This document shows positions 15,959-18,540 of a DNA stretch of 64,000 nucleotides, one piece after another. Every line of letters starts with the position of its first letter. Positions within the stretch are counted from its first letter, which is position 1. The notes under the pieces are model-generated. The model saw only the letters and a program-made list of their open reading frames with translations. It did not search any database and had not been told where the DNA came from. The stretch is from a virus. The stretch is taken from positions 30,875-94,874 of the IMG/VR virus record IMGVR_UViG_3300032307_000369; one strand, given 5' to 3'. Position numbers and translations under genes: made by a program.

Positions 15959-16498
15959 ATGATGCGAGCAAAAGAATTTATACTAGAAGCAGAAGCCAGT
16001 GATACTGAGTTAAAACAACGTTGGGGTGACTTTTCTCCAGAAGACAAGCCTATGCTTCCACAAACACGAGTTGGAGGTGCTCCTGCACCCACACTATGGA
16101 CAGCATACAGTGTTATCCAAAACATTTTAGGTCGAAATCGAGTAACTGATGACGATGACGAACTAGAGCCTGGAATGTACTATGTTTATCAAAGTAATGA
16201 ATCTCCAATGTTTAAGGATACCGGAGACGGAGTTGGTAGTATAAATTTACCTAATTTAGATAGCACTGCGGCACGTGACGTTGCCACGGCAGCACACGAA
16301 GCTTACCATGCTTATGTACACAATAAGAGTCAGGGTGGCTTTGCTCATGCTAACGAAAAAATTATTAACAACCTAGCAGAAAAATGGTTAAGAAATCATT
16401 TATCTGGACCAGCTTTACATGTCGCACTTGAAACAATAGTGGGCAGTAAAATTAGTTATGGTCCAAACCATATGCCTAAACCAGGAACTAAAAAATGA
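15959..16498 (+). CDS. hypothetical protein with HExxH motif
   Basis: ATG at 15959 is preferred over the GTG at 15893, which sits inside the divergent promoter region. AAHEAYHAY could be a zinc metallopeptidase HExxH motif. Weak call. Confidence 0.4.
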   Translation: MMRAKEFILEAEASDTELKQRWGDFSPEDKPMLPQTRVGGAPAPTLWTAYSVIQNILGRNRVTDDDDELEPGMYYVYQSNESPMFKDTGDGVGSINLPNLDSTAARDVATAAHEAYHAYVHNKSQGGFAHANEKIINNLAEKWLRNHLSGPALHVALETIVGSKISYGPNHMPKPGTKK

Positions 16499-18540
16499 AT
16501 ATTAAAAAAATATTATTAAGCCCTTGGACTGCCTTACTAACTCTAGCATTAGTAGTAGGTATACGTATAGCAGATCCTACATTTGTTGAAAGTGTAAGAC
16601 TACGCTACTTTGACACGTTAATTACTGCCAAAGAACCAACTTTTAACAACATCGTAACTGTAAATATTGATGAAGCGAGTTTAGACAAATATGGACAATG
16701 GCCGTTGCCTCGTGCTGAGTATTCCCGACTTGTACGAGATTTATATCAGAGGGGAGCAGGGCTTGTTGTACTTAATGTGCTCATGCCAGAACCAGACCGT
16801 ACAGGTGGCGACAATTCGCTGGGTCAAACTTTAAAAGAATTTCCTGTAGTACTAGGGTCAGTACCTAGTAATAAAACAAAAAATACACCAAGAGTTCCAG
16901 GCAGTGCAGTGCTAGGGCCAGAACATTTAGATCAAATTATTCAATATCCTGGACTTATAGCCAACGTTCCGCAGTTAGAAAACTCAGCGGCTGGTGTAGG
17001 AATAGTATCAACACTACCTGAAGTAGACGGTGTTAATCGTAGACTACCTCTTATCGTTACTGTTGACGGTAAACTTTATCCAAGCATAGCTATGGAAACA
17101 CTCCGCGTTGCGGCTGGCGATAGCACTTTTCAAGTAAAACTATTTGAAGGTGGTGTTGAAAAAATGCGTATACCTACATTTGGTCCTGTTACTACAGACA
17201 ACTTAGGTCGTATATGGATTGATTGGAGCCAACAAAATCGTAGCTTCAGTTTAACCACATTACCAAAAGATTTAGAGGGAGCCATTGTTATTGTTGGTCC
17301 AACGGCTGCTGGCATTGGTAATCCAGTACCAACAAGTAAGGGCGCAGTATGGCCACATGAAGTACAAGCCGCAGTTATAGGCACTATGGTAAACGGTGTT
17401 GTTATTCAACGTCCTGATTATGCAGACGGTGCTGAAATTATAGCGTTGTTGGCTTTTGGTTTACTATTAATTTTATTGTCAAGGTGGACTTATGTTGGAA
17501 TTATTTCTACTGTGGTTATTATTGGTGCCGTCGTTCCTGGTACTTTCTACGCTTTCAATAATTGGCTCATCTTGGGAGACGCGACTGCGATCTCGTTTGG
17601 CCTTATTATCATTGCTCTTCATACTTACGGCGTTAAGTTTGTAAGTGAGTTCTTACAGAAACAGGCAATTAAGAAACAGTTTGAAGGATATGCAAGTCCT
17701 ACAGTAGTTAAACTGTTACAGGAAAATCCAGACATCATCAAGAACGGAACAAAGCGTGAAGTTTCTATTGTATTTTCAGACTTACGTGGCTTCACACCCT
17801 TAGGTGAAAGTTTTGGTGATGATGTTAAAGGTCTAACAGAAGTTATGAATGGCTACATGGATGCTATCACACAACCTGTACTAGATGCAGATGGCATGAT
17901 TATCAAGTATATTGGTGATGCAAGTATGCACATACACAATGCTCCTATTGATGATCCGCATCATGCTAAAACAGCCGTGGCTACAGGACTTAAGATGTTA
18001 AAGGCTGTTAAACAGTTTAGTATTGAGTTGGAAGCTAAAGGTCGTCCAGGTGTTAAGATGGGTGCTGGCATCAATACTGGACTAGGCTATATTGGCGAAA
18101 TGGGTTCAACCAAGCGTCATTCATATGATGTCTTAGGTGATGCAGTGTCAACTGCCGCACGTATTGAAAGCAAATGTAAAGAGTACGGCTGTGTATTACT
18201 GGTTGGGGGTGCTACTGTAGAACAATGCGGTGATGATTTCTTCTTCTTAAAAGTAGACGACCTAGCTGTTAAGGGTAAGAGTGTTGGGGTTGCTATCTAT
18301 ACAGTGTTAGATGATGTCACTGCTGAATATCATGTGGCTAAAAAGATACATGATGCCATGCATAGTGCGTATAGATCACAAAAATTTAGCACAGCTATCA
18401 ATATGTGCAAACAACTTAGAGATCAATTTGACGGAAGATTGAGCGGCTACTACGATATGTGGATAGAACGCTGTGAGTTTCAGTTAACACAAACGTTACC
18501 AAAAGATTGGAACGGCGTGTTTATAGCAACTTCAAAATAA
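16495..18540 (+). CDS. CHASE2 sensor domain plus class III adenylate/guanylate cyclase
   Basis: N-terminal TM helix, then a periplasmic CHASE2-like region of about 300 aa, three TM helices, then a cyclase catalytic domain (VSIVFSDLRGFTPLGE…IKYIGDASM). Confidence 0.75.
   Translation: MNIKKILLSPWTALLTLALVVGIRIADPTFVESVRLRYFDTLITAKEPTFNNIVTVNIDEASLDKYGQWPLPRAEYSRLVRDLYQRGAGLVVLNVLMPEPDRTGGDNSLGQTLKEFPVVLGSVPSNKTKNTPRVPGSAVLGPEHLDQIIQYPGLIANVPQLENSAAGVGIVSTLPEVDGVNRRLPLIVTVDGKLYPSIAMETLRVAAGDSTFQVKLFEGGVEKMRIPTFGPVTTDNLGRIWIDWSQQNRSFSLTTLPKDLEGAIVIVGPTAAGIGNPVPTSKGAVWPHEVQAAVIGTMVNGVVIQRPDYADGAEIIALLAFGLLLILLSRWTYVGIISTVVIIGAVVPGTFYAFNNWLILGDATAISFGLIIIALHTYGVKFVSEFLQKQAIKKQFEGYASPTVVKLLQENPDIIKNGTKREVSIVFSDLRGFTPLGESFGDDVKGLTEVMNGYMDAITQPVLDADGMIIKYIGDASMHIHNAPIDDPHHAKTAVATGLKMLKAVKQFSIELEAKGRPGVKMGAGINTGLGYIGEMGSTKRHSYDVLGDAVSTAARIESKCKEYGCVLLVGGATVEQCGDDFFFLKVDDLAVKGKSVGVAIYTVLDDVTAEYHVAKKIHDAMHSAYRSQKFSTAINMCKQLRDQFDGRLSGYYDMWIERCEFQLTQTLPKDWNGVFIATSK

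Follow-up and report, generated by a model that had tools for sequence, protein, structure and literature searches.

The 64,000-nucleotide stretch of viral DNA analyzed here (referred to as the window) encodes a CHASE2-sensor class III adenylyl cyclase. Its gene closes a cassette with the order CsgF-CsgG-curlin-FecR-repeat protein-cyclase and is itself a further member of a family that, together with the cassette, has already been published for marine phages (PMC7029224, PMC9599517). The GenBank annotations of HTVC008M, a Pelagibacter phage, and Melnitz, a Methylophilales phage, already carry the cassette as well. The genes discussed below are:

9458..9991, + strand: CsgF-like protein, the first T8SS gene (Pfam CsgF 2.2e-07; phrog_35372 2e-46; signal-peptide-like N-terminus)
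9995..11233, + strand: CsgG outer-membrane pore lipoprotein, 412 aa (Pfam CsgG 1.5e-45; lipobox LSGC)
11331..12305, + strand: secreted curlin-repeat protein, CsgA/B-like (Pfam Curlin_rpt 5.5e-06)
12315..13421, + strand: FecR-domain periplasmic protein (Pfam FecR 1.5e-09, residues 56-147; phrog_37870 2e-118; signal peptide)
13418..15145, + strand: secreted 575-aa F5/8 type C (discoidin) and Asn/Gln-rich repeat protein (Pfam F5_F8_type_C 1.5e-11; signal peptide)
15146..15835, - strand: TerC-family membrane protein (Pfam TerC 4.8e-40), a variable insertion within the cassette
15959..16498, + strand: HExxH protein, 179 aa, cytoplasmic and putatively zincin-like (HEAYH; 4-bp ATGA overlap with the cyclase)
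16495..18540, + strand: CHASE2-sensor class III adenylyl cyclase, 681 aa, ATG start
18541..18942, - strand: m133, small membrane protein (phrog_18771 2.9e-29), a paralogue of m93; convergent, abutting the cyclase stop
19304..19585, - strand: m93, small membrane protein (phrog_18771 9.3e-30; TM at residues ~7-33)
19999-20832: Metallophos gene, 1.5 kb downstream of the cyclase
28407-30575: rIIA
30568-31377: rIIB

That the cyclase is phage-encoded is borne out by rIIA and rIIB, by an RNA ligase/tail-fiber attachment catalyst and tail-fiber genes, by the three tRNAs of the window, and by phrog_35576, which matches the cyclase over its full length (2e-193). An identical cyclase gene lies on a 245-kb contig, and the window is from a jumbo phage. 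Its rIIA is nearest to that of PA5oct-like phages (31%); a placement among T4-like Kyanoviridae was rejected on the rIIA search. A megablast of positions 15000-19000 against phages gave no match, and relatives were found only at the protein level.

The cyclase and its immediate neighbors

Pfam searches and hydropathy agree on the architecture given in the preliminary description of this DNA, namely a phage CHASE2 sensor, TM helices and a class III cyclase domain. The CHASE2 match (PF05226) has an E value of 1.8e-39 and 136.3 bits (cut-off 26.3), and the Guanylate_cyc match (PF00211) one of 2.7e-18 and 66.7 bits (cut-off 21.9). The best PDB sequence matches of the cyclase domain are class III adenylyl cyclases, 6fht (1.2e-23), 2w01 and 3r5g, and the motifs FSDLRGFT and IKYIGD start at residues 427 and 470, respectively. 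The parts of the gene are:

16540..17466, + strand: predicted periplasmic CHASE2 domain, residues 16-324 (Pfam PF05226, hydropathy); TM1 (~5-26) precedes it
17425..17643, + strand: three TM helices, residues ~311-383 (hydropathy), the apparent sensor/catalytic recombination junction
17749..18282, + strand: predicted cytoplasmic class III cyclase domain, residues 419-596 (Pfam PF00211; alignment with CyaB 3r5g and Cya2 2w01)
18148..18150, + strand: Ser552 codon, at the position of the canonical transition-state Asn in CyaB (3r5g) and Cya2 (2w01)
18307..18537, + strand: C-terminal extension, residues 605-681, common to Melnitz and most bacterial homologues and missing from HTVC008M

Hydropathy peaks once at residues ~5-26 and three times at ~311-383, after which the cyclase domain follows. 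CHASE2 is accordingly predicted to be periplasmic and the catalytic domain cytoplasmic, and the predicted order is that of the CHASE2 family: an N-terminal TM, an extracytoplasmic domain, three C-terminal TMs and a cytoplasmic output.

A small HExxH-containing ORF coupled upstream of the cyclase had been noted before, and this holds: HEAYH is present, and the two genes overlap by 4 bp at the cyclase start (..AAAATGAAT..). H113-E114-x-x-H117 and N132-E133 are invariant in 24 homologues, and the 247 homologues are at least 71% identical among the matches listed. The 179-aa protein belongs to no Pfam, PHROG or NCBIfam family. Its AF2 model combines a sheet, the HExxH helix and a Glu helix (core pLDDT about 80-89); a fold search with this model gave no match at E<=0.001, the weak ones being mostly zincins. 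A second HExxH ORF at 21979-22662 was considered as a paralogue, and comparison shows the two to be unrelated. The 179-aa ORF occurs only in relatives whose cyclases are at least 80% identical, and TerC is present in the loci L003 and L008 and missing from the 94%-identical L007 and from every other viral locus. Both are lineage-specific inserts, and the HExxH ORF is no general partner of the cyclase.

The minus-strand flanks described earlier are likewise present, formed by TerC on one side and by m133 and m93 on the other. They do not make the locus accessory-island-like, as had been proposed: the cyclase is the last gene of a conserved cassette, of which m133 and m93 are themselves members, and the GC content (0.405 vs about 0.38) is not anomalous. 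Across viral loci, m133/m93 either directly precede CsgF (+) or follow the cyclase (-), and one of these two arrangements is found in 75 of 88 loci; m93 occurs in 0/80 bacterial loci. One or two small genes adjacent to the cluster have been called "histidine kinase" (PMC9599517). From their position m93/m133 would be these genes, and a Pfam search of m133/m93 detected no kinase domain even at E<=10. The Metallophos gene was tried as a CpdA cAMP phosphodiesterase; NF008359 scores 23.9 bits against a cut-off of 225 and covers the C-terminal part only, which leaves it a weak lead, and a PDB sequence search with the protein gave no match.

The catalytic site and its viral Asp/Ser subtype

Catalytic residues were compared in an alignment of 158 sequences (150 representatives and 8 added). 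The two metal-binding Asp residues, D429 (in FSDLRGFT) and D475 (in IGD), are invariant in all aligned homologues, as is the transition-state Arg, R556. The substrate-specifying pair is K471 and D545, where canonical relatives have Lys and Ser/Thr. A Lys with Asp, Thr or Ser points to ATP, and a Glu with Cys or Gly to GTP. A cAMP/cGMP synthase had been suggested earlier; the pair is of the ATP type, and because of it a cGMP product is unlikely.

The domain had also been called canonical, a term that no longer fits since Ser552 replaces the transition-state Asn. Asn occupies this position in 135/158 aligned sequences and in 80/80 bacterial loci, and Ser is found in 53/89 viral sequences, that of the window included. 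The combined Asp545/Ser552 state is present in these 53 of 89 viral sequences vs 0/80 bacterial ones. Moreover, 19 positions near the catalytic motifs (Asp545/Ser552 and about 17 further changes) are each fixed, at >=96%, in the 53 Asp/Ser sequences, and at the same positions the clade residue occurs in <=5% of 116 canonical sequences. The changes at catalytic motifs include D470I, A479H, W481H, N535E, F542H, D543S, T545D, N552S and L553T. Both metal Asp, Lys471, Asp545, Arg556 and Lys593/Lys595 are kept in 53/53 members, and Guanylate_cyc scores are 67-70 bits in the subtype vs 71-82 in canonical relatives. One viral locus, L157 (DDKDNR), is a possible intermediate. Asp545/Ser552 thus defines a previously undescribed catalytic subtype, restricted to viruses, in which the site has been remodeled.

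A precedent exists for activity without the Asn. Ma1120 of Mycobacterium avium is an active adenylyl cyclase with K101/D157, Ala for Asn and the Arg, and restoring the Asn costs it most of its activity (PMC4215837). It resembles the window cyclase in the Lys/Asp pair, the conserved Arg and a small residue in place of Asn; it differs in having Ala rather than Ser and in being soluble, with neither CHASE2 nor TM, and it is not among the PDB matches of the window cyclase at E<=1e-5. In mammalian adenylyl cyclase, the change from Asn to Ser reportedly causes a large drop in kcat (Yan et al. 1997).

The linker and cyclase domain have a dN/dS of 0.009 relative to L007 and of 0.03-0.08 relative to L004, L090, L097 and Melnitz, and in all these comparisons they are the best-conserved part of the protein. 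Purifying selection on the catalytic domain is very strong. A reading of the Asn-to-Ser change as pseudogene decay was rejected on these ratios and on the retention of all other catalytic residues. The preliminary description had tied its assignment to the key Asp and to Asn/Arg: Asp and Arg are present, and the Asn is absent, which taken formally speaks against the assignment. To demand the Asn is too strict, given that Ma1120 is active without it and that the domain is so strongly constrained. The dN/dS of 0.009-0.08 to the closer relatives and the example of Ma1120 argue for a working enzyme. In view of Ser552 and of the 19 positions at which it departs from all canonical relatives, neither its activity nor its product can be taken for granted.

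Synteny, relatives and recombination

The cassette synteny is found in Melnitz, HTVC008M, close relatives and 80 IMG/VR loci. The curlin, CsgF and CsgG genes of the window lie 5' of the cyclase on the same strand, with the FecR gene between curlin and cyclase. CsgF is syntenic in 65/88 viral loci, CsgG is near the cyclase in 68/88 vs 0/80 bacterial loci, and FecR is present in 72/88; the viral loci without CsgG or FecR are mostly truncated contigs. The curlin-repeat gene is homologous to those of Melnitz and HTVC008M. As a separate observation, the 575-aa protein, which matches the "curlin associated repeat protein" of Melnitz (phmmer 3e-12), is a second curlin-like subunit that varies among phages. 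A scan of 9000-20500 for promoters and terminators gave no more sites than shuffled sequence and no convincing promoter in the intergenic segment 15836-15958. Rfam detected only tRNAs; neither a riboswitch nor a tmRNA was found next to the cassette, a difference from Melnitz.

The Melnitz adenylate cyclase (QZI94387.1) is a full-length homologue (50% identity over 98%), and that of HTVC008M (AGE60353.1) is 35% identical over 88%. Both phages share with the window the CHASE2-TM-cyclase arrangement, the cassette order and m93/m133. Melnitz, in addition, has the Asp545/Ser552 subtype and the C-terminal extension, whereas HTVC008M has a canonical Ser/Asn site and lacks the extension. The two are 140-150-kb Kyanoviridae myophages, in contrast to the jumbo phage of the window. 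Furthermore, in the window, unlike in these two phages, m93/m133 is inverted and placed after the cyclase, TerC and HExxH genes are inserted before it, and CsgG carries an extra C-terminal domain, which is SH3_4-like (Pfam SH3_4 7.6e-4).

Alphaproteobacterial CHASE2 cyclases (e.g., Sinorhizobium meliloti CyaD1, CyaD2 and CyaK and homologues in Bradyrhizobium, Thalassospira and Telmatospirillum) have the same domain order and C-terminal extension and are 29-35% identical over nearly the full length. All 80 sampled are canonical (Ser/Thr, Asn), and none adjoins CsgG/CsgF or m93. They often have a FecR-domain gene before them: in 28/80 loci such an ORF, much longer than that of the window, is no more than 10 kb away from the homologous cyclase, and in 15 of these it is upstream on the same strand. 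FecR with CHASE2 is therefore a bacterial module, and it never adjoins CsgG in the 80 loci sampled, CsgF being likewise absent. Similar pairs are known elsewhere. The Burkholderia BiofilmReg operon encodes a response regulator (RR), a LysM/FecR protein and a CHASE2 histidine kinase (PMC5192318), and a Campylobacterota cluster a CHASE2-cyclase, a FecR outer-membrane protein, a TPR protein and a phosphodiesterase (PMC9239204). As in the window, the gene for a secreted FecR-domain protein has that of a CHASE2 sensor as its neighbor; the outputs or partners differ (histidine kinase; TPR and phosphodiesterase genes), and both lack curli genes. This juxtaposition suggests a two-part periplasmic sensing unit, and the viral FecR-domain protein is a candidate partner of the CHASE2 sensor.

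Distances among the viral proteins show that the parts of the cyclase have separate histories. CHASE2 and the TM region correlate at 0.74 and CHASE2 and the cyclase domain at rho 0.10, and the distances of the cyclase domain correlate at 0.21-0.30 with those of FecR, CsgG and CsgF. The sensor and catalytic halves have recombined and assort independently. In this mirror-tree style comparison, which physical linkage confounds, FecR and CHASE2 give rho 0.27 (0.42 for the FecR domain alone) vs 0.50 for FecR and CsgG and 0.61 for FecR and CsgF; CHASE2 is not singled out as the partner of FecR, since CsgG and CsgF are tracked at least equally.

Proposed function and its implications

The interpretation toward which we lean, as the probable one, is that the protein is a signal-gated inner-membrane adenylyl cyclase and constitutes the signaling arm of a phage-borne envelope cassette made up of m93/m133, CsgF, CsgG, the curlin-repeat subunits, the FecR-domain protein and the cyclase. 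In this scenario, Sec-exported products would assemble during infection into an outer-membrane pore of CsgG/CsgF together with curlin-like subunits, and the cyclase would insert in the inner membrane with CHASE2 in the periplasm and the catalytic domain in the cytoplasm. CHASE2 would keep the enzyme silent in the absence of a stimulus from the periplasm or envelope. Such a stimulus would most plausibly reach it through the FecR-domain protein of the same cassette, whereupon the Lys471/Asp545 site would turn ATP into cAMP. S. meliloti CyaD1 without CHASE2 makes cAMP constitutively, CHASE2 being a regulatory, inhibitory input (PMC5498481). That cAMP is the product, that CHASE2 inhibits, that FecR couples to it and what the system is for are inferences. 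The proposed functional link between the curli genes and the cyclase comes from their synteny in viruses, sampled bacterial loci with CsgG/CsgF and a cyclase amounting to 0/80. A search of all window ORFs with an approximate E. coli CRP query (phmmer) found no CRP-like protein, and a Pfam scan of 40 further window ORFs gave no cNMP-binding family among the 25 of 32 families listed. The authors of the Melnitz study saw no cell clumping and proposed a role of the pore in the timing of lysis (PMC9004378).

A doubtful alternative is that the Asp545/Ser552 domain is active with a different product, metal or regulator, or with very different kinetics, in which case the new H479, H481, E535, H542 and C561 would make up an additional site for regulation or for a metal. 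The clustering of the 19 fixed positions at catalytic motifs, the restriction of the subtype to viruses with L157 as a possible intermediate, and the strong purifying selection on the Asp/Ser state are all in keeping with such a change. Lys471/Asp545 is nevertheless the classical adenine-specifying pair (cf. K101/D157 of Ma1120, PMC4215837), the Guanylate_cyc scores stay close to those of canonical relatives, and there is no drift toward pyrimidine cyclases. PycC of Pycsar belongs to the same class III superfamily, and the PADLOC PycC models match the window domain at 55-58 bits; this match is generic, with 58 bits vs 88-110 in canonical CHASE2 cyclases. Unlike Pycsar, the window gene is phage-encoded, outside a defense island and without an adjacent cNMP-binding effector, and the CRP and Pfam searches described above gave no effector in the window; a Pycsar reading was rejected. 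The same comparison leaves the earlier idea of interference with cyclic-nucleotide-based defense unsupported.

We consider it improbable that the cyclase is a stand-alone host-takeover or anti-defense gene, which would act by overloading the cell with cAMP, or by depleting or imitating signaling nucleotides, with no part for the adjacent curli genes and a synteny that is purely historical. Some phage curli clusters do lack a cyclase (PMC9599517), the cyclase recombines independently of the upstream genes, and the curli genes are opposite in strand to it in L090, L111, L113 and L157. In the window, opposite-strand TerC separates the cyclase from the upstream cassette, so that it needs its own promoter. 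Against this, nearly all viral loci whose flanks are long enough have the cyclase beside CsgF/CsgG/FecR, the synteny spans cyclases only 40-50% identical and at least two genome-size classes, an extracytoplasmic sensor implies that the output is not left unregulated but is controlled by a signal from the envelope, and no Pycsar/CBASS-type partner or sponge-like feature is present. Least of all do we expect that the protein has lost its catalytic activity and is retained as a pseudo-cyclase, serving the cassette as a scaffold or sensor in the membrane. The transition-state Asn is lost, and so are N535 and D470, invariant in canonical relatives; the remaining catalytic residues, however, are kept in 53/53 members, the dN/dS of the domain falls to 0.009, and Ma1120 is an active Asn-less K/D/R cyclase.

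Viral curli/T8SS clusters are widespread in ocean viromes, their proteins occur at all 65 GOV2.0 stations, and expression of the cassette genes has been reported from marine metatranscriptomes (PMC9599517). As to their role, the published proposals are sibling capture, the uptake of nutrients and the timing of lysis. On the favored reading of a signal-gated cyclase, the cyclase is the only cassette component with a predictable biochemical read-out and is thus the most tractable way in. Relative to the descriptions cited here, it is new that the "AC" is a CHASE2 receptor and that its "FecR" neighbor matches a recurrent bacterial FecR+CHASE2 sensing module, because of which the viral "FecR" need not be an iron regulator. 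It is also new that most viral copies, including that of cultured Melnitz, have a remodeled Asn-less site not seen in bacteria, that sensor and catalytic halves assort independently, and that the cassette occurs in jumbo phages too. Rather tentatively, the Asp545/Ser552 module may be a virus-specific, neofunctionalized and mobile output module that phages have recombined onto very different CHASE2 sensors. Should the product, metal or regulation of this module differ from those of canonical adenylyl cyclases, the most abundant heterotrophs of marine and fresh waters would be receiving from their phages a distinct second-messenger signal, and this signal would be wired to an outer-membrane pore of the phage's making.

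The cyclase gene and the cassette that it terminates

The gene at 16495-18540 (+) starts with ATG and encodes a 681-aa protein with the CHASE2, transmembrane and class III cyclase organization attributed to it in the preliminary description. Pfam CHASE2 matches residues 16-324 (E 1.8e-39, 136 bits) and Guanylate_cyc matches residues 419-596 (E 2.7e-18, 67 bits), both far over the curated cut-offs. Hydropathy places one transmembrane segment at the N terminus (~5-26) and three more at ~311-383; this topology predicts a periplasmic CHASE2 and a cytoplasmic cyclase domain.

Full-length homologues are found by tblastn in two cultured phages, the Methylophilales phage Melnitz (50% identity) and the Pelagibacter phage HTVC008M (35%). 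In both, the cyclase is the final gene of the series CsgF, CsgG, curlin-repeat protein, FecR-domain protein, repeat protein and cyclase, and the same series is present in the window:

Genes of the cassette in the window
9458-9991: CsgF, signal peptide
9995-11233 (+): CsgG, signal peptide and lipobox
11331-12305: curlin-repeat protein, signal peptide
12315-13421: FecR-domain protein, signal peptide
13418-15145 (+): secreted protein with discoidin domain and repeats, signal peptide
18541-18942 (-): m133, paralogue of m93, phrog_18771
19304-19585 (-): m93, paralogue of m133, phrog_18771

Among 88 viral loci (8 fetched earlier and 80 from IMG/VR), CsgG adjoins the cyclase in 68, FecR in 72 and CsgF in 65, the rest being mostly truncated contigs. 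The genes m93 and m133, which encode small membrane proteins with weak N-terminal likeness to holin/YvrJ, accompany the cassette in 75/88 viral loci versus 0/80 bacterial loci. They occupy one of two sites: just 5′ of CsgF and co-oriented with it (Melnitz, HTVC008M) or, as in the window, just 3′ of the cyclase and in reverse orientation to it. Opposite-strand ORFs do lie on both sides of the cyclase and its upstream HExxH ORF, as first described, but the accessory-island character proposed for the pair is not borne out: the cyclase is the end of a conserved cassette and GC content is unremarkable. Since m133 and m93 are cassette members, the supposed island "flank" belongs to the unit. In a few viral loci (L090, L111, L113 and L157), the CsgF-CsgG-curlin-FecR block is on the strand opposite to the cyclase, which indicates several rearrangements of a cassette whose genes have nevertheless stayed together.

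The window CsgG has 412 aa, compared with ~275 aa in pelagimyophages, and carries an extra C-terminal region with a weak SH3_4 match (residues 358-407, E 7.6e-4). The product of 13418-15145, a gene position at which cassettes vary most, is the second curlin-like secreted protein. It has an F5/8 type C domain (discoidin, carbohydrate-binding type) preceding Asn/Gln-rich repeats and is a putative fibre subunit with a possible adhesin module.

Two further genes interrupt the series. A TerC-family membrane protein gene at 15146-15835 (-) is a variable insertion that splits the cassette from the opposite strand; the near-identical loci L003 and L008 have it, but the 94%-identical relative L007 and every other viral locus lack it. 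The HExxH ORF (15959-16498), which encodes 179 aa with the motif HEAYH, shares an ATGA overlap with the cyclase start, the coupling noted originally. It is confined to relatives whose cyclases are at least 80% identical, and in one of these lineages two other small genes stand between it and the cyclase. It is a lineage-specific addition rather than a general cyclase partner. It has 247 homologues; identity is 71% or higher for every match listed, and these matches carry no Pfam domain. Residues H113, E114, H117 and N132-E133 are invariant, and no signal peptide or transmembrane segment was found in the sequence. The AlphaFold2 model (mean pLDDT 70, core ~80-89) comprises a three-stranded sheet, the HExxH helix and then a helix with E133. 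A Foldseek search of the PDB gave no significant match, the weak ones being mostly zincin peptidases. The product is plausibly a small cytoplasmic zincin. A second HExxH-motif ORF 3.4 kb downstream (21979-22662, +, HEQIH) is unrelated to it in sequence (BLASTP E 2.2).

The description of the gene as phage-encoded is borne out by rIIA, rIIB, an RNA ligase/tail-fibre attachment catalyst and tail-fibre genes. ARAGORN identifies three tRNAs, and Rfam adds a fourth at 22780-22877 (+; 38.7 bits), by two tRNA-Leu genes. An identical cyclase is found on a 245-kb contig, and the window rIIA is closest to PA5oct-like jumbo phages, at only 31%. The source is a jumbo phage, unlike the typical 140-150-kb pelagimyophage. 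The phage is richly supplied with auxiliary genes: Pfam families in the ORF set 221-46000 (also 3616-5988) include DnaK, Hsp20, ClpP and ClpS; the Fe-S cluster assembly families cysteine desulfurase-like, NifU_N, SufBD, Fe-S_biosyn and ABC ATPase; and Band_7/NfeD, PTPS (QueD-like) and UvdE.

Directly 5′ of CsgF, 6366-9406 (+) encodes heme oxygenase, ferredoxin-dependent bilin reductase and an uncharacterized protein of 603 aa. The first two also occur as a pair beside the cassette in numerous IMG/VR loci, among them L097, L099, L104, L107, L108, L124, L137 and L153. A calcineurin-like metallophosphoesterase gene is located 1.5 kb 3′ of the cyclase (19999-20832, +). Its best NCBIfam match is the CpdA cAMP phosphodiesterase (24 bits, far under the 225 cut-off), its N-terminal half matches the PADLOC candidate system PDC-S10 (3.9e-22), and 20/88 viral loci have a homologue no more than 10 kb from the cyclase. 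For 20844-21473 (+), the precomputed annotation of the identical gene in relatives gives Gad2 (PF26128, anti-Gabija family); a direct Pfam search gave no match. The divergent region between m93 and a 79-aa ORF/tRNA-Arg has a perfect sigma-70 consensus (TTGACA-17 nt-TATAAT, 19623-19651, +), and a 10/12 match on the other strand faces into m93.

A catalytic site with Asp and Ser

Alignment to the solved cyclases CyaB (3r5g) and Cya2 (2w01) and to homologues identifies D429 and D475 as the metal-binding residues and R556 as the transition-state Arg. The substrate residues, for which a check had been proposed, are K471 and D545, the adenine-specifying pair. The catalytic domain had been called canonical; D429, D475, K471, D545 and R556 are in place, but the transition-state Asn is Ser552. 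Asn occupies this position in 135 of 158 aligned sequences (150 that represent clusters at 50% identity and 8 added). The six-residue signature is D-D-K-(S/T)-N-R in 80/80 bacterial loci, while the 89 viral sequences, including the window, have D-D-K-D-S-R (53), D-D-K-T-N-R (33), D-D-K-S-N-R (2) or D-D-K-D-N-R (1). The last is the cyclase of locus L157 (10001-12067), where Asp at the substrate position is combined with a retained Asn, possibly a transitional form linking the canonical state to Asp/Ser. A phage-type cassette also surrounds P0127, which at 40% identity is the most divergent of the Asp/Ser representatives.

Nineteen positions in the linker and catalytic domain, together with Q666 in the C-terminal extension, set the Asp/Ser clade apart from canonical sequences. 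Each is at least 96% fixed in the clade, and many fall in catalytic motifs: GTIDKYxGD is changed to GMIIKYIGD, MAFWNAP to MHIHNAP, VGNMGS to IGEMGS, RFDYT to RHSYD and VNLA to VSTA.

The FecR neighbour and the modularity of the sensor

The bacterial sample comprises 80 loci for the nearest cellular relatives of the cyclase, which are mostly from Alphaproteobacteria and 29-35% identical. An iterated FecR profile detects a FecR-domain ORF within 10 kb of the cyclase in 28 of them, in 15 cases 5′ of the cyclase and co-oriented with it; profiles for CsgG, CsgF and m93 matched 0/80. Pairing of FecR with CHASE2 has also been described in the Burkholderia BiofilmReg operon (PMC5192318) and in Campylobacterota CHASE2-cyclase clusters (PMC9239204). 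Collectively, these data indicate that FecR and the CHASE2-cyclase constitute an independent sensing module of bacteria, so that the phage FecR is provisionally better read as a "CHASE2 receptor partner" than as an "iron regulator". Among the loci sampled, union of this module with curli genes is found only in phages. In a co-evolution test, FecR-domain distances correlate 0.42 with CHASE2 and 0.50 with CsgG, and whole-FecR distances 0.27 with CHASE2 and 0.61 with CsgF; a FecR-CHASE2 partnership specifically was not confirmed by this test.

In 60 non-redundant sequences (59 viral loci and the window), CHASE2-domain distances correlate 0.74 with those of the transmembrane region, but their correlation with the cyclase domain encoded by the same gene is only 0.10. 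Relative to the window, CHASE2 and cyclase identities are 37% and 80% in L119, 70% and 46% in L108, and 85% and 59% in L091. As judged from these sequence comparisons, the sensor and output halves have evidently recombined repeatedly near the transmembrane/linker junction.

A probable signalling role for the cyclase

We consider it reasonably probable that the CHASE2-gated adenylyl cyclase is the signalling arm of a phage envelope cassette. By analogy with Sinorhizobium meliloti CyaD1, which is constitutive when CHASE2 is deleted (PMC5498481), CHASE2 would probably keep the cyclase inhibited until a periplasmic cue arrives, and the FecR-domain protein would likely relay this cue. A cAMP reader was not found in the 64-kb window (phmmer with E. 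coli CRP against the window ORFs, and the 25 of 32 Pfam families listed for a further 40 ORFs). The observation made originally is confirmed and its interpretation partly supported, the island reading and the canonical site excepted.

Neofunctionalization of the enzyme, with an altered product or regulation, appears unlikely, although the clade-specific substitutions bear on it. Pfam scores are similar in the Asp/Ser clade and canonical relatives, and a shift to Pycsar pyrimidine cyclases is rejected, as PycC models give 58 bits versus 88-110 in canonical relatives. Still less probable is a stand-alone host-takeover or anti-defence gene, given the cassette of which the cyclase is the end. That the protein is a pseudo-enzyme lacking activity along with the Asn is very improbable. 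Mycobacterium avium Ma1120, an active adenylyl cyclase with Lys/Asp, Ala for Asn, and Arg, provides an experimental precedent for activity without the transition-state Asn and loses most activity when Asn is introduced (PMC4215837). Moreover, decay of the catalytic site is ruled out by the low dN/dS of the linker and cyclase. The value is 0.009 when the 94%-identical relative is compared and 0.03-0.08 for L004, L090, L097 and Melnitz, and no other part of the protein is as well conserved in these comparisons. Against L107 and L091 the value is ~0.16, with dS near saturation.

A CsgF/CsgG "curli operon" was reported in pelagimyophages in 2020 (PMC7029224). In 2022, FecR, "adenylate cyclase" and "histidine kinase" were added to this viral T8SS cluster, for which alphaproteobacterial origin and myo-/podophage transfer were inferred and which occurs at all 65 GOV2.0 stations and is expressed in metatranscriptomes (PMC9599517). 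By position, the "HK" genes of that study correspond to m93/m133, in which no kinase domain was found even at E<=10. The Melnitz paper treats only CsgGF, as a proposed lysis-timing pore (PMC9004378). CHASE2 is unmentioned in these three papers, and a search for CHASE2 in phages found no paper on the topic within the literature covered. The cyclase adds a new member to this phage gene family and cassette, both already published; the version in the window is locally rearranged and comes from a jumbo phage. The reading of CHASE2 and FecR as a module, a virus-only catalytic subtype without the Asn and the shuffling of sensor and output appear to be undescribed in the cited literature.
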